A stretch of 64,000 bases of DNA from Erythrobacteraceae bacterium (GCA_031399025.1 JANNOJ010000015.1:36306-100305); one strand, 5' to 3'; shown: positions 6,394-19,721, numbered from the stretch's first letter. Made by a program: numbers and translations. Notes: generated by a model not told the origin, from the letters alone.

Positions 6394-6515
6394 CGCGGTC
6401 CTCGTTGCCCGGCAAAATGAGGAGTGTACACACGCAAGTTTCTGAGACAAGTGTTTCGACATTTAAGTCGGAATGGTGGCGTGGCCGTGGCGGAAGTTGG
6501 TGCGGGGAGATACGA

Positions 6516-9365
6516 ATGAAAACGACACGGCGAGAGCTGATCGGCGGGGCAGCCGCGTTGGGGCTCGTCGTGGGCGGGGTGTGGCCGGCCCGCGGGGCGG
6601 CACCTCGGACGCTTGCTCTTACGCCGCGCGCGTTCGTGATCGACGGCCAACCCATCACGCTCATCCTGGGCGCAATCGACTATTTTCGCGTGCCTCCGGC
6701 GCTGTGGCGCGACCGGCTGCTGCGCGCCAAGCGCGCTGGCGTGAACGCGGTTGCCACCTATGTCGCCTGGAACGTGCACGAGCCGACCAATGGGCGATTT
6801 ACCTTCGAGGGCGACGCCGACCTGGGGCTCTTCCTCGACATCGCGCACGAATTGGGGATGTTCGCGTTCCCCCGGGTGGGACCGTTCATCTGCGCGGAGT
6901 GGGAGGGCGGCGGCCATCCCGGCTGGCTGTCCGCGCTCGGGGAGACGGAATTGCGCGCCGCGCATCCGCCCACGCTGGCGCTGGTGCGGCGGTACTTCGA
7001 ACGGCTGAGCGCCGTGCTCGCCCCGCGCCAGCTCGACCGCGGCGGTCCGATCGTGATGATCCAGCAAGAGAACGAGTTTTTCTTTGTCGGCCGTCCGGGC
7101 ACCAAGGAATATCAAGCTACTCTGGTGCGCTACCTGCGCGAGTTCGGCATCACGGTTCCGATTACCGACTGCAACGGGCTGCGCCCCGACACGCGCGTCG
7201 AGGGATCGATGGCGACGCTGAACGGGGGCGGCGAGGCGAACGTGCGGGCGCTCCAGGCCTACCAGCCCGACCGGCCGGCGATCGTCAGCGAGCTCTACAC
7301 CGACTACATCACCATGTGGGGCTGGCCAGCCAATTCGTACCCGACCACAGGTCATGTTCACCATCAGGCGTTCGAGACGGTCGCGGCGGGCGGCATGCCG
7401 GCATATTTCATGTTCCACGGCGGCACCAATTTCGGCTTCACTGCAAGCAACAGCTGGAAATCGGACCAGAGCTTCGTCACCACCCGCTATTACCCGCGCG
7501 CGCCGATCGCCGAGGGCGGGGCGCTCAACCCGACCTATTTCGCCCTGAAAGCCGTCCACCAGCCGCTGCGCGCGGCCGAGCGGTTCCTGACCGCGGCGCA
7601 GCCGGCGGACCTGCCGACCGCGATCGCCGGGCCGGTCCGCGCGAACGCGATGCAATGCCCGCAGGGGCTGCTGATCTTCGTCCAGCCGCGCACGCCCGAA
7701 CGCGTCGGGCACGTGTTCCACACCGACAACCGCTCGGGGCCGCTCATCCAATTGGAGGAGCAGTGGCCGATGGTCGAGGAGGCGGCACTGGCGGGGACCA
7801 TCCGCCTGCCGACGGGCGCAGTCGTCGAGCTGGCCGAACCGTCGTCGACGCCCTCGGTGCTGCCATGGGCGCTCGAGATCGATCCCGGCCGGCGGATCGA
7901 CTGGAGCAATGCGACGCTGATCGGCCTTGCCGGCAGCGCCGCGCGCCGCGTGGTGATCCTGCGCGGCGCGGCGGGGCGGCAGGGGGTCATATCGATAAGC
8001 GGACGTGAGGCCGCCTTCACCTTCGCCGACGCGCCGGTGCGGCTGGAGGTGGGCGGTGTTGCCGTGATCGGTCTGGACGAGGGCGCGGCGGCGCGGACCT
8101 GGTTCGCCGACGGGCGCACGCTGATCGGCCCTGCTTATGTGGGCGAGGCACGGGGCGAGGCTCACGAGTGCTGGCTCGACGGCGACAGCGCCGCGCTGAC
8201 GACCGTCTCGAGCGCCGGCGAGATCGCGACCCGCACGCTGGCGCCCGCCGCGATTGCCAGCGCGCGGGTGGCGTTGTCCAACTGGTCGGCGCGGTCGCTG
8301 CCTGAAATCGGCGCGGCGGAGGGCTGGGAGCCGCTGCCCGGTCCGCGCTCGCTCGAAACGCTGGGGGTGCTTCATGGATATGCGTGGTATCGGGCCCGCG
8401 CCACGTCACCTACGGCGCGGCGTGCGGGCCTATTCTTTACCGCTGCCGCCGATCGGCTGACCGTGTTCATCAACGGCACCCGGGCGGGCGTGTGGGGGCG
8501 CGGCCCGGGCGCGGAACGCGACGCTCTGCCCGTCGAGCTGCGCGCCGGGAGCAACGACATCGTGCTCCTTGCCGACAACATGGGCCGGCGGTCAGAGGGG
8601 GCGCTGCCCGATTCCAAAGGTGTGCTTGGTCCCGCCTATCTCGATGCGGTTGTGCGCCCGTTGCCCATCGCGTCGATGATGATTGTGGACGCCATGCCTA
8701 CCCAGTCGTGGCGCGCGCAGACCTACCGTCACTACTACAGGGAGGCGCCGATCGTGCGCGCCCGCTGGAGCTTGGAGGCCGGGGCGGGGGAGGGTCTGAC
8801 GCTCTCGCTGCGGTGGCTGCCGCAGTTCGCATGGGTGATGGTGAACGGCCGCGTGGTGGCCGAGCATCCGGGCGACCTTGCGTTGGCGGACGGCAGCGCA
8901 TTTGGCTCGGTGGTGCTCGATGAATATCTGACGGGTGGTGCGGTGACGCTCGACCTAGTGCTGATGGGCACGCCGGTTGGAGATCTGGCGGACCACGTCA
9001 AGCTGATCGCCTATCCGCGCGACAAGCTGTTGACCGGTTGGGCGTGGCGGCGATGGGCAGACCCGGTCCATGCCGGCACGCCCACGAAGGGCGATCCGTG
9101 TTGGTGGTCGACGAGCTTCGACCGGCCCGCGACGCCGGGGCCCTTCTTCCTGGTGACGGCGGGGCTGAGCAAAGGGCAAGCCTGGCTGAACGGCCGCGCG
9201 CTCGGCCGCTATTGGGAGATCGGGCCGCAACGCACGCTCTATCTGCCCGAGCCCTGGCTTACCCAGCGCAACCGGCTCGAGATCCTGGATGAGGAGGGGG
9301 CGAACCCACGCGGGCTGGAGGTGGTGCGCGACGTGAGCGTGCCGTCGGCCATGATTGTCGCGTGA
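6516..9365 (+). CDS. glycoside hydrolase family 35 beta-galactosidase with twin-arginine signal
   Basis: GH35 core FVIDGQPITLILGAIDYFRVPPALWRDRLLRAKRAGVNAVATYVAWNVHEPTNGRFTFEG...GPFICAEWEGGGHPGWL...IQQENEF. N-terminus MKTTRRELIGGAAALGLVVGG is Tat-like. GGAGA RBS upstream of ATG 6516. Confidence 0.85.
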   Translation: MKTTRRELIGGAAALGLVVGGVWPARGAAPRTLALTPRAFVIDGQPITLILGAIDYFRVPPALWRDRLLRAKRAGVNAVATYVAWNVHEPTNGRFTFEGDADLGLFLDIAHELGMFAFPRVGPFICAEWEGGGHPGWLSALGETELRAAHPPTLALVRRYFERLSAVLAPRQLDRGGPIVMIQQENEFFFVGRPGTKEYQATLVRYLREFGITVPITDCNGLRPDTRVEGSMATLNGGGEANVRALQAYQPDRPAIVSELYTDYITMWGWPANSYPTTGHVHHQAFETVAAGGMPAYFMFHGGTNFGFTASNSWKSDQSFVTTRYYPRAPIAEGGALNPTYFALKAVHQPLRAAERFLTAAQPADLPTAIAGPVRANAMQCPQGLLIFVQPRTPERVGHVFHTDNRSGPLIQLEEQWPMVEEAALAGTIRLPTGAVVELAEPSSTPSVLPWALEIDPGRRIDWSNATLIGLAGSAARRVVILRGAAGRQGVISISGREAAFTFADAPVRLEVGGVAVIGLDEGAAARTWFADGRTLIGPAYVGEARGEAHECWLDGDSAALTTVSSAGEIATRTLAPAAIASARVALSNWSARSLPEIGAAEGWEPLPGPRSLETLGVLHGYAWYRARATSPTARRAGLFFTAAADRLTVFINGTRAGVWGRGPGAERDALPVELRAGSNDIVLLADNMGRRSEGALPDSKGVLGPAYLDAVVRPLPIASMMIVDAMPTQSWRAQTYRHYYREAPIVRARWSLEAGAGEGLTLSLRWLPQFAWVMVNGRVVAEHPGDLALADGSAFGSVVLDEYLTGGAVTLDLVLMGTPVGDLADHVKLIAYPRDKLLTGWAWRRWADPVHAGTPTKGDPCWWSTSFDRPATPGPFFLVTAGLSKGQAWLNGRALGRYWEIGPQRTLYLPEPWLTQRNRLEILDEEGANPRGLEVVRDVSVPSAMIVA

Positions 9366-9611
9366 TCCGCGCCGGGCCGGTCGGGTTTCTCGCGCCGCGC
9401 ACATGAGTGAAGCGCCGCCGACGCCCCGCGCGGAGGCGGTCGACGCGGCGATCAAGGTGAAGTTCGCCCGCCTTGCGGCGGCGTAGTATTGCGCGGGCGC
9501 GGTGGTGTTGTTCAGCATAGCAAAGGTCGCAATGCTAGATGGTGGGCGAGGGTGCGAATACAGCCTGGAAGACGGGCAATCTGATCCGATACTTCCGCCA
9601 CACGCACGTCC

Positions 9612-10425
9612 TCAGCACCGCAAGGGCAGAACCCCCTACGGAATGTGCAGATGCTAGCGTGAGTTGATGACGGCTGCGGCGAGCTGGATGATGGCGCTGA
9701 ACCTGTGGCCGGTGCGGTCGGCGGGCATGGCGCTGCGGGCGAACTGTGCGGGCTTGCACCAGGACGCCGTGGGCAGGTGGCTCGATCCCGGCCGTGCCGG
9801 AGCGATGACCCGGCAGCAGTCTGACGCACGCCGTTGCCGAGCGCATCGGCGAGCGCCAGGATCTGGCGCGTCATGCCACCCTTGGACTTGCCTGCGGCCC
9901 GGCTCCGAGTTCCCCTGTTGCGCCCTGTGCATGATGGCGAACCTTGACGATCGTGGCGCCCGCCATGGCTTAGCCCATGTCCGGCTCGGCCGAGCAGGCC
10001 TTGAAAAGGCTCACGAGAGCGACGGCTTTGCGCCGGTCGCCGTCGCGTCGGCGGGCCGTGCTGCCATTGTCGAACATCGCCGCCGGGCGCGCCCCGGGGC
10101 GGCCGGTCCGCGCGATCCACACAATCGCCTCGGGAAACGGCGGTTGTCACTCGCGCTGGGTATCGGCCGGTACGGCGCGTTCCATCCGCAGCGTGAATCA
10201 CCTCACGCCCTCATGAAGCCTAGGTCCCGACACAGCCTAGGGCGGCGCGCGCAGAGCGAAAGCAGCCGGTACGTAGTGCCTTTGCCTACATGCCGCTCGC
10301 GGCGGCTTTCCCTCGATCCGACCAGGCCGGGCTCCAGGATCATTTTTCGGGGTGATCGCCGGGTGGGAGATCTATCCGACACCTTGATCACGGCCACTGC
10401 CATTCAGATCGGTCACCCCCCCCTC
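9612..10425 (-). mobile_element. decayed IS5-family (IS427-like size) insertion sequence; transposase broken over three frames
   Basis: Transposase motifs are scattered over different minus frames: ILEPGL..., AAFALRAPP(stop) in place of the LRTGxPWRDLP motif, GKSKGGMTRQILALADALGN (GxSRGGxxTKIH motif), and the C-terminal tail FSAIIQLAAAVINSR. The tail and following bases are related to 38574-38640. Confidence 0.5.
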
Positions 10426-10564
10426 ATGCCCCGACCGATATTCCGCCCGTCGGTCTGGCCTGAACGGCGGATTGGGGTAGGAGAGGACGGCGAGCAACTG
10501 CCGGTTGGTCAGCAACCGGCGACGGCGGCGCGACCGCCCTGGGAACACCTTCTCGCGCGCAGCC

Positions 10565-11332
10565 TCAGGCAGCGCGGGGCAGGGCGCGGGGGGCCGCGGC
10601 CGAAGCCCGGCCGGCGGTTCCGGCAAGCAGGCGGAGGGGCATCGCGGCGGCGCTCCCCTGCCCGGCCAGCGGAGAAAAAGCGGTGGATTGCAGCCCGGCG
10701 ATGCATTGCAGCCTGACTGCCTCGGCCGAATGCGTCACGCCCAGCTTGTCCATCATGTTGGCGCGGTGGATCTCAACCGTGCGCGGGCTGATGTCGAGCG
10801 CGCGGGCGATGAGCTTGTTGGAATAGCCTTCCGCCAGCCAGTCGAGCACTTGGCGTTCGCGGCGGCTGAGGGTGGCGATGCTCCGCTGCGCTTCCACCAT
10901 GCTGCGTCGTCCGCTGATCTGCCGCTCGGCCCCGCCGTCTATCTTGTTCACCATGCGGGCAAGGTCGTCAGGGGCCAACGGCAGCGACAGGAAGTCGAGC
11001 GCGCCTTCCTCCACGGCGCGGACCACGTCCTGCACGCCGGGTGCATCGGCGACCGCCACCACCGGCAGCCAGATCCCCGCAGTGCCCAGGCGCCCGATCA
11101 CCAGGCCGATGCCGCTGCCCAGCAGTTCACCGCCGACCAGAACCACCCCTGCCCCGATCGGCCGAGCGACCAGTTCGACCAGGTCTGCGTAGACTTCGGC
11201 ATGGCAGCCATATGCGAATGCGGCGCGCGCCTGCTCGGCGCGCGAGCGGCTGGTGCCGCCGACGATGTGGAGGGTGGGTTGCATTTCCATGAGCGCAAGA
11301 CTGCTGCTGCCCACTGCTTCGCTCATGTCCAA
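10565..11332 (-). CDS. LuxR/FixJ-type transcriptional regulator with degenerate (pseudo) receiver domain
   Basis: C-terminal LuxR HTH (LSRRERQVLDWLAEGYSNKLIARALDISPRTVEIHRANMMDKLG). The N-terminal region has receiver-like topology but lacks the acidic pocket, phospho-Asp and Lys (see finding). Confidence 0.75.
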   Translation of the reverse strand: MDMSEAVGSSSLALMEMQPTLHIVGGTSRSRAEQARAAFAYGCHAEVYADLVELVARPIGAGVVLVGGELLGSGIGLVIGRLGTAGIWLPVVAVADAPGVQDVVRAVEEGALDFLSLPLAPDDLARMVNKIDGGAERQISGRRSMVEAQRSIATLSRRERQVLDWLAEGYSNKLIARALDISPRTVEIHRANMMDKLGVTHSAEAVRLQCIAGLQSTAFSPLAGQGSAAAMPLRLLAGTAGRASAAAPRALPRAA

Positions 11333-11541
11333 CTGCCCCGGTTTCCGAGCCTTTCAACCGGCCCTTGGAACCTTATGGCGGCAATTTCCTGCCGATTGGT
11401 TAATATCGGAGTGCATTTAACCTGCGTACCATTTCGCTCCGGGCAAGCCCTTAGGGATCGTTTACTCGCCCTTTACCAGTTCCCCCCAATAGAGGGCTCG
11501 CCGAATCACAGCCAGCGGGTGGGCAAAGGACTGCAGGCAAC

Positions 11542-12288
11542 TTACCGGGAGGGTTGATAGAAGCTGTAATCGGGCAGCGAATGGAAAGCGGTCCGCAACG
11601 CCTCGCTCCAGCTGGACGAGATGGCGACGTAATAGGGATCGGACTGCTCGATCCGGCGCTCGTGCAGCGCCTTGAAGCCATCGCGCTCGATGACCAGGAG
11701 GTCGAGCGGCAGGCCGACCGACAAATTCGCCTTGAGGGTGGAGTCGAAACTGACCATCAGCAGCTTGACCGCATCCTCGAAGCTCATTCCCCGGTCGTAA
11801 CCGCGGATGATGATCGGGCGGCCATATTTGGTCTCGCCGATCTGGAAGAACGGGGTGTCGAAGCTCGCCTCGATGAAATTGCCTTCGGGATAAATGAGGA
11901 ACAGGCGCGGCTGCATTCCCTTGATCTGGCCGGCCAGGATGATCGAGGCGGTGAAGCGCGAGGAGCCCGACTTGTTTTCCGCCTGGGTGCCGCGGACGGT
12001 CTCGCGCAGCAGCTTGCCGGCTTCGGAGGCAGCCTGGAACATGGTCGGCAGACCGAGCAGCGAATTCTGCCGATCGTCGGGCGTCTTGGTGCGTTCCTCG
12101 AGCCGGCTGATCACCGCCTGAGTGGTGGCAAGGTTGCCAGCGGTCATCAGCGAGATGATCCGCTCGCCCGGCACCGTCCAGTGGAACATTTTGCGGAATA
12201 CCGAGATGTTGTCGACGCCCGAATTGGTCCGGGTGTCGCTCATCAGTACCAGGCCCTTGTCGAGCAATAATCCCACGCAATAGGTCAT
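11542..12288 (-). CDS. Anbu (ancestral beta-subunit) proteasome-homolog peptidase
   Basis: 248 aa starting MTYCVGLLLDKGLVLMSDTRTNSGVDNISVFRKMF...TAGNLATTQAV...YFQIGETKYGRPII...DSTLKANLSVGLPLDL. Ntn-hydrolase with Thr directly after Met. Lies in the canonical operon context. Confidence 0.85.
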   Translation of the reverse strand: MTYCVGLLLDKGLVLMSDTRTNSGVDNISVFRKMFHWTVPGERIISLMTAGNLATTQAVISRLEERTKTPDDRQNSLLGLPTMFQAASEAGKLLRETVRGTQAENKSGSSRFTASIILAGQIKGMQPRLFLIYPEGNFIEASFDTPFFQIGETKYGRPIIIRGYDRGMSFEDAVKLLMVSFDSTLKANLSVGLPLDLLVIERDGFKALHERRIEQSDPYYVAISSSWSEALRTAFHSLPDYSFYQPSR

Positions 12289-13232
12289 CGTCAGGCCTGT
12301 GCCATCCCTCTCTTGGTGCTGCTGCGTCGCACCGGCAAGCCCGGGCCGGTTGGGGCGATCGGCAGGGCGCCCGGCCGCCGGTCGGCGCTGGCCTTCCTGC
12401 CAACAAGCAATCGGCCAATCCCCAAAGGCTCGGCGGCGGGCGACCGGCGCGCCAAGTGCGGGAACAGCACCGGGTACAGGGTCGCGTTCGGGCCGTCAGC
12501 ACCCCCGTCTGCCGCGCCGGAAGCACTCGCGCACGCGCTCATTGCGACCGCGCGACGCTTCATCGCGCGACCGCCGGCTTTGCCCCTGGTACGCATCGCC
12601 GTGCGCCATGGTCAAGCCGGACGGTCGGCGCTGCTCGCAGATAGTCGCGGCGGACGGCCTCATGAGTTTTCGCGCCAGGCCTCGCCCGGCCGTTGCTTCT
12701 CGCCAGCTTGTTCACTGAAGTTCCCCGCCAGCCGATCGTTCTATTGCCGGACCCAGAGCCGTAGACCCGGCGGCGCCATGCCCTCGCTGATCCCTGCGAT
12801 CGACGCCGGGTTGGCATCTTTGCAAGCCGTGACGGCCGGGTATGGCGCCCGCGCGCGGGCGGCCTGCCTGCACACGCGCACCTGTTTGTTGCCGCCATTG
12901 GGCGACCGGTTGATCCAGCGCCGCCGCATCCTCCACCGTCAGCCCCGCGGCCGCGTTGACCCGGCTTATCCCGGCGAGCGCCACCGTGTCGCAATCGGTG
13001 CGGCCCGTTGCCGTAGAGCTTCTCGCAACTTCTCCCCGCCGAACCGCAGATATGCGCGCGCCCGCTCATTGCCGCTGCCTGGGGACCCGGTGCGCCACCG
13101 TCGCGGTTAGGCGCGCGAGGATGGTGTCGGCGCCCTTGCCGCCGATCGATGCCCGATCACGGTTGTCGCGGCGAGTGACCAGAGGGCGTGGCGCAACCAC
13201 TCCTGGCCGGACTGCCGCATGCGCGCACCTGC
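12289..13232 (-). other. about 0.94-kb stretch inside the Anbu operon with no intact convincing CDS (possible decayed gene or genes)
   Basis: Several short high-GC3 minus-strand frames that switch frame. One is MRQSGQEWLRHALWSLAATTV..., then ...IGGKGADTILARLTATVAHRVP, then ...TGRTDCDTVALAGISRVNAAAGLTVEDAAALDQPV, then ...SPNGGNKQVRVCRQ...ISEGMAPPGLRLWV. A 90-codon ORF 12291-12563 (MKRRAVAMSACASASG..., lipobox-like) ends 2 nt before the Anbu ATG. Confidence 0.3.
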
Positions 13233-14054
13233 TCATTGCTGCTGGCCCGCGACCTGCTGTTCCACCGCCACCTCCACCGTGAGGCCCGCGGTTACCGCGC
13301 CGTAGCTGATGCCGGTGATCGGCGCCGCGTCGCGGTAGTCGCGACCCGTGGCCACGCGGACGTAGCGCGGATCGGGGCTGATCTGGTTGGAGATATCGAA
13401 ACCTACCCAGCCCAGGCCCTCGACAAAGGCTTCCGCCCAGGCGTGGGTCGCTTCCTGCTCGACCCGGTCGTTCATCATCAGGTAGCCGCTGACATAGCGG
13501 GCGGGGATTTCCAGGGCGCGGGCGGCGGCGATGAAGATATGCGCGTGGTCCTGGCACACCCCCTGGCCGGCAGCGACTGCCTCCTCGGCGCTGGTATCGA
13601 CGCCGGTCTCGCCGGTGGCGTAATCGACCGCGCTGCAGATGGTGGCCGAAAGCTGGTGCAGCGTGGGCACGAGGCCGGTTTCGCCGCGATCGACCGAGGC
13701 GATCAGCTGCCTGATCTTGGGGCCCGGCCGGGTCAGCCTGGTCTGCCCGAGGAAGGCCCACAGCGGCAGGTGGCCGGCATGGTGGCCGAGCACGCCGGCC
13801 TTGTCTTCGGTATCCACCTGGCCGGTGCAGGTGACCATCACTTCGCGCACGCCCGTCTCCACCGAGATCAGGGTGACGTGGTTGTGGTTCTGGTCATCAT
13901 AGGCGAACTCCTCGCGCGCACCTTCGTACTCCATCCGCCAATCACGGATGCGCTGGCCCTGCGTGGTTTTGGGGGTCAGTCGCAGCCGCTGCAGTCCGTG
14001 CGCCACGGGCTTGGCGAAGCTGTAGCGGGTGGTGTGGCGGATGGCGAGGCGCAT
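13233..14054 (-). CDS. transglutaminase-like cysteine peptidase family protein
   Basis: 273 aa from MRLAIRHTTRYSF. Cys-His-Asp core GQGVCQDHAHIF ... ATHAWAEAF ... WVGFDISN. Operon partner of the alpha-E and cpATP-grasp genes. Confidence 0.85.
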   Translation of the reverse strand: MRLAIRHTTRYSFAKPVAHGLQRLRLTPKTTQGQRIRDWRMEYEGAREEFAYDDQNHNHVTLISVETGVREVMVTCTGQVDTEDKAGVLGHHAGHLPLWAFLGQTRLTRPGPKIRQLIASVDRGETGLVPTLHQLSATICSAVDYATGETGVDTSAEEAVAAGQGVCQDHAHIFIAAARALEIPARYVSGYLMMNDRVEQEATHAWAEAFVEGLGWVGFDISNQISPDPRYVRVATGRDYRDAAPITGISYGAVTAGLTVEVAVEQQVAGQQQ

Positions 14055-14076
14055 GAGGGGCTGTCCCTTCGGGGGC

Positions 14077-15021
14077 TCAAGAGATGAAGCGGTAGTCCTC
14101 GGCAATGGCCGAGGCGATCGTGTGATTGTGCCTGATGAAATCGATGAGAAACTCGTGCAGCCCCTGGTCGAAGATGTTCTCGATGGTGCGGTCGCCCAGG
14201 CTGAGGTCGGACTGGCGCATGCATTCGTGGCAGCGGCGCTCGTGGCCGTGCAGGCGGGCGAGCGCGGCCAGGTTCTCCCGCATCGCGGCATAGCAGAAGG
14301 CGAGGCTGCGCGGGAAGCGATCGTCCAGGATCAGGAATTCGGCGATGGAGCGGGCGTCCATGCGCCCGGCATTGAGCCAGCGATAGGCGCGCTCGCCCGA
14401 AAGCGAGCGCAGGATATTGTCCCATTGCCCCGTATCGAGGGCGGTGCCCACGTAAGACAGCGAGGGCAGCAGCAGGTAGTATTTGACGTCCAGGATGCGG
14501 GCGGTGTTGTCGGCGCGCTCGAGGAAGGTGCCCGAGCGGGCGAAGGAATAGGTCTCGTTGCGCAGCATCGAGCCGTGGGTGGCGCCGCGCGCGAGGGTGG
14601 ATTCGCGCCGGATCGCCGCCAAAGCGAGGCCCAGATTGCTCTCGCGGACCGGCCGGGCGAGCAGGTCGCGCAGCGTCATCCACCCCTCGTTGATCGCCTC
14701 CCACACCTCGGCGGTGATGGCCGAGCGGCAATAGCGCGCATTCATCCGGGCGCGTTCGAACATGGTCAGCACGCTTTCGGCGTTGTTGCGCCCGCGCAGC
14801 ACGAAGTCGCAGACATGCGCCCCGTCATAGCCCTCGTGCGTGGCATCGTAGGCGTTAAGCAGGCCCAGCGTGGTGAGCACCGAGCGCCATTCCTCGGACG
14901 CGACGTCCTGCCCGCGGGTGAGCGTCATCCGGTGGCCGGCGGCGAGCAGGCGCACGGTGTTCTCGGCACGTTCGAGATAGCGGTACATCCAGAAGATGCC
15001 GTTCGCCACCCTACCGAGCAT
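14077..15021 (-). CDS. alpha-E domain protein
   Basis: 314 aa starting MLGRVANGIFWMYRYLERAENTVRLL, the typical alpha-E N-terminus. Always paired with the circularly permuted ATP-grasp protein. Confidence 0.85.
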   Translation of the reverse strand: MLGRVANGIFWMYRYLERAENTVRLLAAGHRMTLTRGQDVASEEWRSVLTTLGLLNAYDATHEGYDGAHVCDFVLRGRNNAESVLTMFERARMNARYCRSAITAEVWEAINEGWMTLRDLLARPVRESNLGLALAAIRRESTLARGATHGSMLRNETYSFARSGTFLERADNTARILDVKYYLLLPSLSYVGTALDTGQWDNILRSLSGERAYRWLNAGRMDARSIAEFLILDDRFPRSLAFCYAAMRENLAALARLHGHERRCHECMRQSDLSLGDRTIENIFDQGLHEFLIDFIRHNHTIASAIAEDYRFIS

Positions 15022-15050
15022 GATGCCGGCCTAGCATGGACCCATCGCTC

Positions 15051-16484
15051 TCACAGGTCGTCCAGCACCCAGCTGTCCTTGGTCCCGCCACCCTGGCTGG
15101 AGTTCACCACCAGCGAGCCCTTCTTGAGCGCCACGCGGGTGAGGCCGCCCGGGGTGATGTAGACGCCTTCGGGCGAGCACAGCACGAAGGGGCGCAGGTC
15201 GACATGGCGCGGCGCCAGGCCGCGACGGGTGAAGATCGGGCAGGTCGAAAGCGCGAGGGTGGGCTGGGCGATGTAATTGTCGGGCTTGGCCAAGAGCTTC
15301 TGACGGAATTCCGCAATCTCCCGCTTGCTCGAGGTGGGGCCGATCAACATGCCGTAGCCGCCCGACCCGTGGACTTCTTTGACCACCAGCTGTTCCAGAT
15401 TGTCGAGCACATATTTGAGCGCGTCGGCATCGGCGCAGCGGAAGGTTTCGACATTTCCCAGCAGCGGCCGCTCGCCGGTGTAGAACTCCATGATCTCGGG
15501 CATGAAGGAATAGATCGCCTTGTCGTCGGCGACCCCGGTGCCCGGCGCGTTGGCGATGGTGATGCGGCCCGCGCGATAGACGTCCATGATGCCCGGCACG
15601 CCCAGCACGCTATCGGGGTTGAAGGTGAGCGGATCGAGGAAGTCGTCGTCGACGCGGCGATAGAGCACGTCGATCGGCTGGAAACCGACGGTGGTGCGCA
15701 TCTGCACCCGGCCGTCGACGATCCGCAGGTCGCTGCCTTCGACCAGCTCGGCGCCCATCTGGTCGGCGAGGAAGGCGTGCTCGAAATAGGCCGAATTGTA
15801 GATCCCCGGCGTCAGTACCGCCACGATGGGATTGGCGCTCGCGTCGGGCGGGGCGCAGGCCGCGAGGCTCTGGGCGAGGCGGCGCGGATAGTTTGAAACC
15901 TGCTGCACCTTCACCCGGGTGAACAGCTCGGGAAACATGGCCATCATGGTCTCGCGGTTCTCGAGCATGTAGCTAACCCCCGATGGGGTGCGGGCGTTGT
16001 CCTCCAGCACCAGAAAGTCGTCGACCCCGATGCGCACCAGGTCGATGCCCACGATGTGGGTGTATACTCCGCCCGGCGGAGTGAAGCCGACCATCTGCGG
16101 CAGCCAGGCGTTGTTGTCGCGGAACAGGCGCTCGGGCAAGCGGCCCGAACGGATGATCTCCTGGCGGTGGTAGAGATCGTGCATGAAGGCGTTCAATGCC
16201 CGCACCCGCTGCTCGATGCCGCGCGACAGCCGCCGCCATTCGGCGCCGCTGATGATCCGCGGGACCATGTCGAACGGGATCAGCCGCTCCTCGGCGTCGT
16301 CCTCGCCGTAGACGTTGAAGGTGATGCCCGCGCGGCGGAAGAAGGTCTCGGCCTCGAAGCCCTTGCGCCGCACCCAGCCCGGCGCCTGCTCGGCCAGCCA
16401 TTGCTGGTATCCGCGATAGGCGGGGCGGATGGACCCGTCGGGGCCGTGCATCTCGTCGAAGCTGGCGGGCTCGGTCGCGCTCAT
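15051..16484 (-). CDS. circularly permuted type-2 ATP-grasp protein
   Basis: 477 aa. MSATEPASFDEMHGPDGSIRPAYRGYQQWL...ITFNVYGEDD...RLIPFDMVPRII...LVVKEVHGSGGYGMLIGP matches this family. First gene of the four-gene operon. Confidence 0.88.
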   Translation of the reverse strand: MSATEPASFDEMHGPDGSIRPAYRGYQQWLAEQAPGWVRRKGFEAETFFRRAGITFNVYGEDDAEERLIPFDMVPRIISGAEWRRLSRGIEQRVRALNAFMHDLYHRQEIIRSGRLPERLFRDNNAWLPQMVGFTPPGGVYTHIVGIDLVRIGVDDFLVLEDNARTPSGVSYMLENRETMMAMFPELFTRVKVQQVSNYPRRLAQSLAACAPPDASANPIVAVLTPGIYNSAYFEHAFLADQMGAELVEGSDLRIVDGRVQMRTTVGFQPIDVLYRRVDDDFLDPLTFNPDSVLGVPGIMDVYRAGRITIANAPGTGVADDKAIYSFMPEIMEFYTGERPLLGNVETFRCADADALKYVLDNLEQLVVKEVHGSGGYGMLIGPTSSKREIAEFRQKLLAKPDNYIAQPTLALSTCPIFTRRGLAPRHVDLRPFVLCSPEGVYITPGGLTRVALKKGSLVVNSSQGGGTKDSWVLDDL

Positions 16485-16587
16485 GTTACCCCTGTGACCC
16501 GAGCGTGCATGGCACGCTTCTAAATGTTCGCCAAGTGAGAGGCTGTTACAGCGCCCGGTTCAAACGACGGGGTTCAGGGGGCGGGGT

Positions 16588-17379
16588 TCAGGCGGCGAGC
16601 TCGCGGGCCACGGCACGGATCGCCTCGGCCGAATTGGAGAAGCCCAGATGGGTGCAGCGCAGCGCCACGGCGCGGTCGCGCTCGCCCGGGCGGCCGGCGG
16701 CACTGCGCGGGGCGATGATGCCGTCGCGCGCGCTCCACAGCGCCACGGTTTCCACCGGCGGCTTTTCCGGCACCCGCGCCTCGATCGGCGGGCTCATCAC
16801 CGAGTGGCCGGTGATCATCTGGTAGATCCGCCACATGTTGTTGGAATAGGGCGTGTGGCTGAACGGCGAGCCCATGGTGACCACCTTGTCCACCATCTCG
16901 GGGTGACGCTTGGCGATCTCGCGGGCGAAGATGCCGCCCAGGCTCCAGCCGACCAGCACCACGTTCCGCCCATAGCGCCGCTGGACGTCTTGCACCCGCC
17001 TAGACAGCTGGTCGAACACCTGTTCGGTGGGTCCGAAATTGAACCCTGCACCCCAGCGCTTGACCGTATGGCCGGCCCCCTCCAGCGTGCGGGCCATGTA
17101 GCGCATGCGCAGCGGATGGGTGGCGAACCCGGGCAGCAGAATGACCACCCGCGGCGCGCTGGCCTGGTCGAGTTCCAGCGCCGGGCGAAACAGGCGCGCG
17201 ACCGGCTCACCGAACGCCGTGACCTCGCCCAGCAGCAGCTCGATCCGCGGCGCGCTGGCCTCGTCGGGCGCCCGGTCCACGGCCAGCCGCGCCCGGCGCG
17301 AAACCGAGCTGCGCAGGTCAGCCAGCGAACTGCCGAACTGGGCCCGACGGGGAAGATGGGAGACGTTGGTGGTAGCCAT
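16588..17379 (-). CDS. alpha/beta-fold hydrolase (lipase/esterase-like)
   Basis: 263 aa. Nucleophile elbow VLVGWSLGGIFA and LLPGFATHP oxyanion region. Same strand as the ATP-grasp operon and about 100 bp upstream of it. Confidence 0.78.
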   Translation of the reverse strand: MATTNVSHLPRRAQFGSSLADLRSSVSRRARLAVDRAPDEASAPRIELLLGEVTAFGEPVARLFRPALELDQASAPRVVILLPGFATHPLRMRYMARTLEGAGHTVKRWGAGFNFGPTEQVFDQLSRRVQDVQRRYGRNVVLVGWSLGGIFAREIAKRHPEMVDKVVTMGSPFSHTPYSNNMWRIYQMITGHSVMSPPIEARVPEKPPVETVALWSARDGIIAPRSAAGRPGERDRAVALRCTHLGFSNSAEAIRAVARELAA

Positions 17380-17534
17380 TGATCCTACTGTAACCGAATT
17401 GTCTTGTTAGACGATGAACGGCCCTGCGTATCAAGGGTTTCTCGGTAAAAATCTGCCCGGCCGCGATCGGCCTCTTCGACCAGGCGCAAGGGGGACAGCT
17501 TGGCGATGCCCGGCAGCAATGCCATATCCGCACC

Positions 17535-19721
17535 ATGGCAGAACTCGTTATCCGGCGCGGTCTCACAGAGCCCGACACCAGCGGCCAATTCGTCCCCCAC
17601 AAGCCGCGGCGGCCCGAAAAGTCGCTGGGCGGGCGGCCGTTCAAGCTGGTTTCCGAATACGAGCCGGCGGGCGACCAGCCGGCCGCCATCGCCGAGCTGG
17701 TGGCGGCGGCGCGCGAGGGCGAACAGACGCAGGTGCTGCTCGGCGTGACCGGCAGCGGCAAGACCTTCACCATGGCCAAGATGGTGGAAGCGCTGCAGCG
17801 CCCGGCGCTGGTGCTGGCGCCCAACAAGATCCTCGCCGCGCAGCTGTACGGCGAGTTCAAGAGCTTCTTCCCCGAGAACGCGGTCGAGTATTTCGTCAGC
17901 TATTACGATTATTACCAGCCCGAAGCCTATGTGCCGCGCTCGGATACCTACATCGAGAAGGAATCGAGCGTTAACGAGGCGATCGACCGGATGCGCCATT
18001 CGGCCACCCGCTCGCTGCTCGAACGCGACGACGTGCTGATCGTCGCCTCGGTATCGTGCCTTTACGGCATCGGCTCGGTCGAAACCTATTCGGCGATGAT
18101 CTTCGATCTCAAAAAGGGCGAGAGCGTCGACCAGCGCGAAATCATCAGGAAGCTGGTCGCGCTGCAGTACAGGCGCAACGACGTCGCCTTCGCCCGCGGC
18201 TGCTTCCGGGTGCGCGGCGACAGCCTGGAGCTGCATCCCAGCCATCTTGAAGACACCGCCTGGCGGATCAGCTTCTTCGGTGACGAGATCGAGGACATCG
18301 CCGAGTTCGATCCGCTCACCGGCAAGAAGGGACAGCCGCTCGACAAGGTGCGCGTGTACGCCAATTCGCACTACGTCACCCCCGGCCCGACGATGCAGCA
18401 GGCGACCCAGGCGATCCGCTTCGAGCTGACCGAGCGGCTCAAGGAACTGCACGCGGAAGGCCGCCTGCTCGAAGCGCAGCGGCTGGAGCAGCGGACCAAT
18501 TTCGACCTCGAGATGATCGCCGCGACGGGCAGCTGCAACGGCATCGAGAACTACAGCCGTTTCCTGACCGGCCGCCTGCCGGGCGAGCCGCCGCCCACGC
18601 TGTTCGAGTACCTGCCCGAGAACGCGCTGCTGTTCGTCGACGAGAGCCACCAGACGGTGCCGCAGGTGGGCGCGATGGCGCGCGGGGACCACCGCCGCAA
18701 GATCACCCTGGCGGAGTACGGCTTCCGCCTGCCTTCGTGCATCGACAACCGCCCGCTGCGGTTCAACGAATGGGACGCGATGCGCCCGCAGACCGTCGCC
18801 GTCTCCGCCACGCCGGGGCCGTGGGAAATGGAGCAGACGGGCGGTGCGTTCGCCGAGCAGGTCATCCGCCCCACCGGGCTGATCGACCCGCCGGTGGAGA
18901 TCCGCCCGGTCGAAGACCAGGTGCAGGATTGCATCAACGAGTGCCGCGCGGTGGCCAAGCAGGGCTACCGCACGCTGGTGACGACGCTCACCAAGCGCAT
19001 GGCCGAGGACCTGACCGAGTTCATGCACGAGCAGGGCGTCCGCGTGCGCTACATGCATTCCGACGTCGAGACGCTGGAGCGCATCGAGCTGATCCGCGAC
19101 CTCAGGCTGGGCGTCTACGACGTGCTGATCGGCATCAACCTGCTGCGCGAGGGCCTCGACATCCCAGAATGCGGGCTGGTCGCGATCCTCGATGCCGACA
19201 AGGAAGGTTTCCTGCGCTCCGAGACCTCGCTGATCCAGACCATCGGCCGCGCCGCCCGCAACGTGGACGGCCGGGTGATCCTCTATGCCGACCGCATCAC
19301 CGGCTCGATGGAGCGGGCGATCGCCGAGACCGGCCGCCGGCGCGAGAAGCAGCGCGAATACAACGCGGCGCACGGCATCACCCCCACCACCATCCGCCGC
19401 GGCATCCAGGACATCGTCGCCCACACCGCCTCGCGCGACGGCGTGCTGATCGATACCGGCGATCCGGAACGCAACAACCTCGTGGGCCACAATTTGCGCG
19501 CCTACATCCAGGACCTGGAGAAGCGCATGCGCGCGGCGGCGGCGGACCTGGAGTTCGAGACCGCGGGTCGGCTGCGCGACGAGATCCGGCGGCTGGAGGC
19601 GGACGAACTGGGCATTCCCGATGCGGAAAAGCGCGCGCCGATCGTGGGGCGCAGCAACGAAGGCAAACCGGGTACGCGCAAGCTGCGCTACGGGCGGACG
19701 CAGCGGAAGATGGGGAAGTAG
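17535..19721 (+). CDS. uvrB: excinuclease ABC subunit B
   Basis: 728 aa. Walker [13 protein letters not shown], helicase motifs, beta-hairpin region and C-terminal UVR domain ([17 protein letters not shown]). Confidence 0.97.

Follow-up and report, generated by a model that had tools for sequence, protein, structure and literature searches.

An intact Anbu operon with an enlarged internal spacer

We analysed a 64,000-nucleotide (nt) stretch of DNA from an Erythrobacteraceae bacterium (GCA_031399025.1 JANNOJ010000015.1:36306-100305; hereafter the window, with positions counted from its first letter), concentrating on a four-gene operon at 11542-16484 that ends in Anbu, a hydrolase resembling the proteasome beta subunit. 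Among conserved bacterial clusters that lack an assigned substrate or role, this operon is one of the most widespread, and it is relevant to the origin of the proteasome. From upstream to downstream, the genes are:

15051..16484, minus strand: amidoligase of the circularly permuted ATP-grasp type (cpATP-grasp), 477 amino acids (aa)
14077..15021, minus strand: Alpha-E protein, 314 aa
13233..14054, minus strand: transglutaminase-like (TGase) Cys-His-Asp enzyme, 273 aa
11542..12288, minus strand: Anbu, proteasome beta-like N-terminal-nucleophile (Ntn) hydrolase with Thr1 as nucleophile, 248 aa

An initial annotation, made from the sequence alone, had described four genes in canonical order on one strand, the first three separated by gaps of 29 and 22 nt, and the open reading frame (ORF) limits match it exactly (ligase/Alpha-E gap, 15022-15050; Alpha-E/TGase gap, 14055-14076). 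For the TGase gene we took the ATG at 14054 as the start; the mechanical ORF extends upstream to 14291. The same annotation called the operon complete, which holds for the genes themselves: all four are in the right order, full length against Pfam and Protein Data Bank (PDB) references, and carry the expected catalytic residues. It left unmentioned, however, the 944 nt that separate the TGase stop from the Anbu start (12289..13232).

The locus is almost certainly an intact orthologue, on a Croceibacterium-like Erythrobacteraceae chromosome, of the canonical Anbu operon (COG2308/COG2307/COG1305/Anbu) known from Pseudomonas, Yersinia bercovieri, Hyphomicrobium and cyanobacteria (Valas & Bourne 2008; Iyer et al. 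2009; Fuchs 2017; Piasecka 2018). It shares with that operon the four families, their order and strand, the tight spacing of the first three genes, the Thr after Met, Asp17 and Lys32 of Anbu, the TGase triad and the lack of an adjacent AAA+ unfoldase gene. Unlike the canonical operon, the window copy has a 944-nt repeat spacer, no sigma-54 motif that we could find, and flanking hydrolase and pseudo-receiver genes specific to Sphingomonadales. An independent assembly from a sister strain shows the same arrangement, making misassembly an unlikely explanation of the layout. The copy is an ordinary member of a widespread known operon, with the repeat-filled gap as its one unusual trait.

No AAA+ unfoldase gene is present at the locus, where the neighbours are an alpha/beta hydrolase, uvrB, a LuxR-type regulator and a GH35 beta-galactosidase, and the locus contains no transporter or small-molecule metabolic genes. 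NCBIfam provided no equivalog for any of the four operon proteins. PADLOC models run against six proteins, including the LuxR protein, gave no defence-system match except to the generic helix-turn-helix (HTH) of that regulator.

The four proteins retain their catalytic features

The initial annotation had staked its four family assignments on profile searches. Pfam assigned all four proteins to these families, and PDB sequence matches and orthologs agree. Anbu matches PF00227 (Proteasome; E = 9.5e-9) and five PDB Anbu sequences at 9e-87 to 8e-61, including 5nyj (8.2e-72), 5nyf (3e-71) and 5lox (7.6e-61); its best match to a proteasome beta subunit is archaeal 3h4p, at 1.6e-7. By these sequence comparisons, the protein is classed as Anbu and not as another proteasome relative. 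The alignment spans residues 1-241 and includes the C-terminal extension region of 5nyj. An exact-sequence look-up of the window's Anbu found no record.

The first start codon available past the upstream stop begins M-T-Y-C, which leaves no room for a propeptide and makes Thr residue 1. This position and the alignment with PDB Anbu sequences both fit the earlier proposal of a Thr nucleophile without a propeptide. ORF-numbered Asp18 and Lys33 (SDTRTN and FRKM), which correspond to mature Asp17 and Lys32, are aligned with the Anbu structures; the residue names and roles are those of PMC6376114. Like HslV and 20S beta subunits, the window Anbu has the Ntn-hydrolase proteasome fold and a Thr1 nucleophile, as its matches to PF00227 and 3h4p indicate. 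Unlike them, it is far closer to the Anbu structures, lacks a propeptide and has no HslU/PAN/Mpa-type ATPase nearby; according to the literature on other Anbu proteins, the family further differs in forming an open split-ring or helical assembly and in being inactive on proteasome substrates.

The ligase matches PF14403 (CP_ATPgrasp_2; 1.2e-162) and PF04174 (CP_ATPgrasp_1; 2.6e-144) and, across residues 5-476, the structural-genomics entry 3n6x (3.2e-190). Alpha-E, which invariably accompanies the cpATP-grasp ligase, covers positions 1-293 of the 294 in the PF04168 profile (6.5e-81), and our sequence search found no solved relative. An AlphaFold2 model of Alpha-E, built on a shallow alignment of sequences 75-97% identical, is all-helical (pLDDT 77.1, pTM 0.70) and has no fold neighbour in the PDB (best Foldseek E 1.9, TM-scores <0.3). 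The TGase-like protein matches PF08379 (Bact_transglu_N; 5.3e-20) and PF01841 (Transglut_core; 4.3e-23), and aligns with 3isr (3.8e-17) so that its Cys (GVCQDHAH), His (THAWAE) and Asp (GFDIS) fall on GVCRDFAH, FHACFE and IFDAT. The triad that had been read from the sequence (Cys in GVCQDHAH, His in THAWAE and Asp in GFDISN) is therefore matched in a solved structure.

The spacer is a decayed tandem array of the TGase 3' end

The spacer between the TGase and Anbu genes is a degenerate tandem array of ~170-nt units, each derived from the 3' end of the TGase gene together with its stop junction, with ~4 copies here:

13368-13192, minus strand: source copy, comprising the end of the TGase gene and the stop junction
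13194-13024, minus strand: unit copy (self-BLAST E 2e-9)
13018-12857, minus strand: unit copy (self-BLAST E 6e-10)
12842-12762, minus strand: partial, decayed copy (nhmmer E 3.7e-6)
about 12736-12512, minus strand: decayed copy (nhmmer E 0.0023)
12511-12289, minus strand: final ~220 nt of the spacer, without an assigned unit copy

Self-BLAST aligned the units at 67-68% identity across 164-178 nt, and an nhmmer profile of the units returned E-values of 7.5e-44, 1.1e-36, 3.7e-6 and 0.0023. A tblastn search with the TGase C-terminus also finds the spacer copies (E 4e-5), for example ATGRTDCDTVALAGISRVNAAAGLTVEDAAALDQPVAQWRQ versus ATGRDYRDAAPITGISYGAVTAGLTVEVAVEQQVAGQQQ. The best-preserved part of each unit is the stop/start junction GCAATGAGCnGGTGCGCGCAT. 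With its copies less than 70% identical, the array escaped Tandem Repeats Finder but was recovered by self-BLAST and the nhmmer profile. The spacer has a G+C content of 71%, against a window mean of 68%.

Other contents of the spacer were considered and rejected. A hidden gene is contradicted by the absence of any frame with the codon usage or third-position G+C (GC3) of the neighbouring genes (log-likelihood <=0.12, versus 0.4-0.9 in real genes), of any Pfam match among the spacer ORFs and of any spacer homolog in 80 related loci (blastn and tblastx). For a non-coding RNA or tRNA, the spacer yielded no Rfam match (one chance-level match lies elsewhere) and no tRNA, and its predicted folding shows no excess structure over shuffled controls (z = +0.59). 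A mobile element or dispersed repeat was rejected on finding no other copy of the spacer within the 64-kb window.

We compared the spacer across these 80 loci, all from Sphingomonadales and mostly from Erythrobacteraceae and Novosphingobium, whose Anbu proteins are 71-85% identical. In the 77 with a TGase gene upstream of Anbu, the spacer has a median length of 54 nt; it is at most 127 nt in 75 of them, 153 nt in one and 1025 nt in one (L017), and the value for L001 is unreliable owing to a masked run of N. The long L017 junction contains an inserted 293-aa ORF (L017 7021-7902), and the L001 junction (about 7870-8000) contains a 14-nt tandem repeat (GGCCAGAGACAGAC-like) beside the masked run. 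The TGase-Anbu junction is unstable in these other lineages too.

The most informative relative is a sister strain represented by a Logan contig from SRR22405859 (L081), with an Alpha-E 97% identical to that of the window and ~90% nt identity over the Alpha-E and TGase genes. It has the same layout, with a spacer of 1175 nt (L081 1868-3042) containing about six unit copies. Only the 250 nt adjoining Anbu can be aligned between the two spacers, at 78% identity, which compares with 77-83% at flanking third codon positions; the central part is not alignable and the copy number differs. In the next-closest relatives, whose Alpha-E proteins show 89% and 87% identity, the spacer measures 33 and 37 nt, indicating that the array arose recently in this lineage.

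The coding sequences have changed differently between the two strains. Alpha-E retains 97.5% amino-acid identity with 80% identity at third codon positions, TGase 92.7% with 77%, and the first 60 codons of Anbu 98% with 83%, a pattern that points clearly to purifying selection on Alpha-E, TGase and the Anbu N-terminus. Because its copy number shifts, its alignable part diverges at the synonymous rate and its centre has turned over, we read the spacer as neutral: it looks like the non-functional debris of tandem duplications. It offers a clear example of a gene's 3' end undergoing tandem duplication within an operon and then decaying. With this spacer in front of Anbu, co-transcription of Anbu with the other three genes is not self-evident.

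Natural variants of the operon in related genomes

The initial annotation had suggested that the flanking hydrolase and LuxR genes may be lineage-specific accessories and had proposed a neighbourhood survey, which we carried out. Among informative loci, 44 of 69 have the hydrolase gene no more than 400 nt upstream of the ligase gene, and 56 of 75 have the LuxR gene no more than 900 nt downstream of Anbu. Outside the order, we examined nine Anbu loci on PLSDB replicons, from Limimaricola, Paracoccus, Azospirillum, Klebsiella, Ralstonia, Burkholderia, Caballeronia, Methylobacterium and Acidithiobacillus. In most, the operon has just its four genes and short spacers (well under 160 nt), and none of the nine has a homolog of the window hydrolase or LuxR gene. 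The suggestion therefore stands as far as distribution goes: the two neighbours are common in Sphingomonadales and missing from these diverse Anbu loci.

Three relatives within the order have an intact Anbu without the full ligase module. Two loci from Croceibacterium metagenome-assembled genomes (L010 7278-8744 and L015 7232-8732) read uvrB, hydrolase, Anbu, LuxR, with no ligase, Alpha-E or TGase gene anywhere in the 16.7-kb loci; in L010 the TAG of the hydrolase gene is followed immediately by the ATG of Anbu. A third locus (L073 5836-7796) carries a deletion running from the middle of the hydrolase gene to about TGase residue 46. These three loci indicate that Anbu can persist without its partners in cis.

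A single bacterial family thus offers an intact operon, an Anbu displaced by ~1 kb of debris and an Anbu without the ligase module, natural variants whose comparison could bear on the dependence of Anbu on its partners. The repeat-derived spacer, the Sphingomonadales-specific neighbours and the natural Anbu-only variants are small, concrete additions that leave the overall picture as it was; the window copy gives no new handle on the function of the operon.

Three of the loci outside the order have unusual surroundings. In Ralstonia solanacearum CP025986, a different alpha/beta hydrolase gene begins 24 nt after Anbu (L089 6940-7761); orthology with the window hydrolase was rejected, the only match being 33 residues at the nucleophile elbow (E 9e-4), and its position beside Anbu is either coincidence or independent recruitment. 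On an Azospirillum brasilense plasmid (L087 6501-7235), a solitary Anbu gene sits among ABC transporter, amidohydrolase, amidase and hydroxyisourate hydrolase genes. An Acidithiobacillus caldus megaplasmid (L090 1-12714) carries two Anbu paralogs beside ntrC/glnL, together with genes for an IS256 transposase, a PDC-sensor protein, a large transglutaminase-family protein and a cpATP-grasp protein, and so physically links Anbu with nitrogen-regulation genes.

Flanking genes and a promoter-like element

The operon is bordered by the following features:

17535..19721, plus strand: uvrB, divergent from the hydrolase gene
16588..17379, minus strand: alpha/beta hydrolase, 263 aa (Pfam Abhydrolase_1, Hydrolase_4, Abhydrolase_6 and PGAP1)
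16503..16535, minus strand: promoter-like element between the hydrolase and ligase genes (CTTGGCG at 16535-16529, ~14 nt, then TG-C-CATGCA)
10565..11332, minus strand: FixJ/NarL-type LuxR regulator with a pseudo-receiver (GerE, 2.6e-23)
6405..9365: GH35 beta-galactosidase, convergent to the LuxR gene

The hydrolase and the regulator are two candidate lineage-specific partners of the operon, the one a serine hydrolase and the other a pseudo-receiver protein. The hydrolase has Ser146 (in GWSLGG), Asp219 and His244 invariant in 51 orthologs. Its close relatives are named 'esterase/lipase family protein' in their sources, and it has no NCBIfam equivalog. The best 120 matches in its homolog search are all at least 62% identical and all from Erythrobacteraceae; its wider context was taken from the PLSDB replicons.

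The regulator aligns with FixJ (5xso; 4.5e-20) from receiver beta4, in the second half of the receiver, through the HTH. Like FixJ/NarL regulators, it combines a GerE HTH with the C-terminal half of a receiver; unlike them, it lacks the acidic pocket, the phospho-acceptor Asp and the conserved Lys, and has no adjacent kinase gene. The residues equivalent to D10, D11, D54 and K104 are G, G, G and L in the window protein, and across 45 orthologs the Asp54 equivalent is never Asp (R/Q/A/H/C/G) and the Lys104 equivalent is L/M/Q/V/Y, in keeping with its earlier designation as a pseudo-receiver. The protein scores below every NCBIfam cut-off. Translation probably begins at Met15 or Met17 of its ORF, near 11290 or 11284.

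The promoter-like element, CTTGGCG...GTGCCATGCAC (16503-16535), is conserved: CTTGGCG and GTGCCATG/GTGCAATG occur at the same position in 10 close relatives, and the element is visible in many of the 80 loci. This conservation before the ligase gene suggests that the ligase module has its own promoter, which is predicted to drive it. An inverted repeat, GCGTGC-CAT-GCACGC (16517-16503), overlaps the element ~20 nt before the ligase ATG, and the neighbouring LuxR-type regulator might use 16503-16535 as its operator. The ~1.2 kb that separates the LuxR and GH35 genes (9366-10564) contains junk-like ORFs only, with no Pfam, tRNA or Rfam match and no homolog in the 80 loci.

A tentative ligation and degradation system for nitrogen recycling

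The best clue to the function of the operon is that it is induced when nitrogen is limiting. In P. putida short of nitrogen, Anbu and the rest of its operon belong to the most strongly induced genes (PMC3235984, note added in proof), and PP_2685 and PP_2688 are up by log2 4.4 and 4.0 on nitrate relative to ammonium (PMC8050072). The cpATP-grasp/Alpha-E/TGase cluster of B. cenocepacia depends on NtrC/sigma-54 (PMC5491218), and predicted sigma-54 regulons are enriched for COG3484 (PMC12316311). Comparative genomics delineated the operon and its four component families (PMC3235984; likewise Iyer 2009, as cited in PMC5666114 and PMC6376114). Biochemically, the ligase orthologue of Yersinia bercovieri releases phosphate from ATP (PMC6376114), and Anbu forms open split-ring or helical assemblies (PMC6376114, PMC5666114).

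With these observations, the best-supported reading of the operon is a ligation or tagging system coupled to degradation and serving nitrogen recycling, a mechanism that we hold tentatively and at rather less than an even chance. The ligase and Alpha-E would spend ATP to activate a carboxylate as an acyl-phosphate and couple it to an amine, so that a peptide or protein substrate would acquire either a tag, held by an amide or isopeptide link, or a short peptide. Amide-forming chemistry of this kind follows from the ATP-grasp fold. The Cys-His-Asp enzyme of TGase fold would then transfer or remove the amide, and Anbu, without an unfoldase partner, would hydrolyse tagged or unfolded peptides, so that the net role would be turnover and recycling of peptide-bound nitrogen under nitrogen limitation. 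In the window, the ligase module would be transcribed from the promoter-like element directly upstream of the ligase gene; Anbu, displaced by 944 nt through neutral duplications of the TGase 3' end, would be reached by read-through or from an unrecognised promoter. Taken as a whole, with the intact operon, this mechanism and the local anatomy together, we rate this best explanation a little above even. The hydrolase and the phosphorylation-independent FixJ/LuxR regulator, as Sphingomonadales-specific neighbours, may take part.

The logic of this mechanism has two analogues, to neither of which the operon belongs. E. coli Gss, the glutathionylspermidine synthetase/amidase, pairs an ATP-dependent amide ligase with a papain-like Cys-His amidase that undoes the bond, and the resemblance lies in the combination of a ligase with an amide-reversing Cys enzyme. 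Unlike in Gss, the activities in the window are on separate proteins, the ligase is circularly permuted and accompanied by Alpha-E, and Anbu has no Gss counterpart. The Pup-proteasome of actinobacteria (PafA/Dop/20S) has an ATP-dependent amidoligase encoded beside a proteasome-family hydrolase, plus a hydrolase that reverses the modification, and the operon would combine the same three activities. It differs in having no gene for a Pup-like small protein (the spacer ORFs are non-coding), no AAA+ ATPase and no alpha subunit, and in the fold of the ligase, which is ATP-grasp in the window and glutamine-synthetase-like in the Pup system.

Several points weigh against the tagging mechanism. Anbu purified from three species left standard proteasome substrates uncleaved, and stable complexes among the operon proteins were not detected (PMC6376114). 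The predicted Alpha-E model offers no functional clue. The 944-nt spacer and the three Anbu-only relatives argue that Anbu need not act strictly with its partners. None of the intergenic regions at the locus contains a TGGCAC-N5-TTGC-type sigma-54 site, which makes the nitrogen link an extrapolation from other taxa. The best sigma-54-like core, TGGCGC-N5-TCGCC at 12439-12454 on the minus strand, matches at 8 of 11 positions ~165 nt upstream of Anbu in the GC-rich spacer, and is probably a chance match in GC-rich DNA. Finally, no substrate is established for the system: the initial annotation had described an operon defined by comparative genomics with no established substrate or role, and our literature searches up to 2026 bear this out, finding no substrate or function assigned to it and no later functional study.

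It is possible, although on balance unlikely, that the locus is functionally split, with Anbu no longer co-transcribed with the ligase module and acting, or being regulated, independently, perhaps with the downstream LuxR regulator; the operon would then amount to two units, and this would be compatible with the mechanism above. The length of the spacer speaks for such a split (944 nt in the window and 1175 nt in its sister strain, whereas 77 relatives have a median of 54 nt), as do a Shine-Dalgarno-like GAGGGA ~20 nt from the Anbu ATG, the two Croceibacterium loci that retain hydrolase, Anbu and LuxR without the ligase module, and the survival of Anbu after the deletion in L073. Valas and Bourne also found Anbu sometimes outside the operon and in the same predicted regulon (PMC3235984). 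Against it, all the genes are on the same strand, and consensus scans, which are uninformative here and weak for alphaproteobacteria, returned no terminator-like site on the minus strand of 10300-17600 and no sigma-70-like promoter in the spacer. The strong purifying selection on Anbu is compatible with either reading.

A role in small-molecule metabolism, the main rival to the tagging mechanism, is more doubtful still. Here the ligase would make an amide conjugate of a metabolite, glutathionylspermidine-like or a gamma-glutamyl-amine, the TGase-fold enzyme would be an amidase and Anbu an Ntn amidohydrolase for a non-peptide amide, so that nitrogen would be scavenged or stored from small compounds. 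The closest solved ligase, 3n6x, was deposited as a 'putative glutathionylspermidine synthase', but the depositors' label is itself a putative annotation. Anbu shows no activity towards the peptide substrates of proteasomes, and some Ntn hydrolases are amidases of non-peptide compounds (PMC6376114), yet Anbu keeps Thr1/Asp17/Lys32, the substrate-binding strand, the S1 pocket and large proteasome-like oligomers (PMC6376114, PMC5666114). The solitary Azospirillum Anbu amid ABC transporter, amidohydrolase and amidase genes would suit such a role, whereas the window locus is free of transporter and small-molecule metabolic genes.

We consider it improbable that the Erythrobacteraceae locus is a six-gene system whose persistent core is the alpha/beta hydrolase, Anbu and the phosphorylation-independent FixJ/LuxR regulator. 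This idea follows from the two Croceibacterium genomes that keep these three genes side by side with the ligase module cleanly lost. If it were true, the serine hydrolase and Anbu would share a substrate, the ligase/Alpha-E/TGase module would be dispensable, and the rapidly changing repeat spacer would be the sign of a separation still under way between the two halves. Within one order, synteny cannot be told from functional coupling, and the neighbours may have an accessory role.

A functional spacer, whose units would encode small substrate peptides (MSRCAH.., MSGRAH.. and MSACAS.. at ATGA overlaps) or a regulatory RNA, is very improbable: the stop/start junction is the best-kept part of each unit and ~1 kb of repeats persists in two strains, but the spacer shows no coding signal, Pfam or Rfam match or excess folding, its copy number varies, its centre is unalignable, its 250 alignable nt have diverged as far as third codon positions, and relatives with 87-89% Alpha-E identity have spacers of 33-37 nt.

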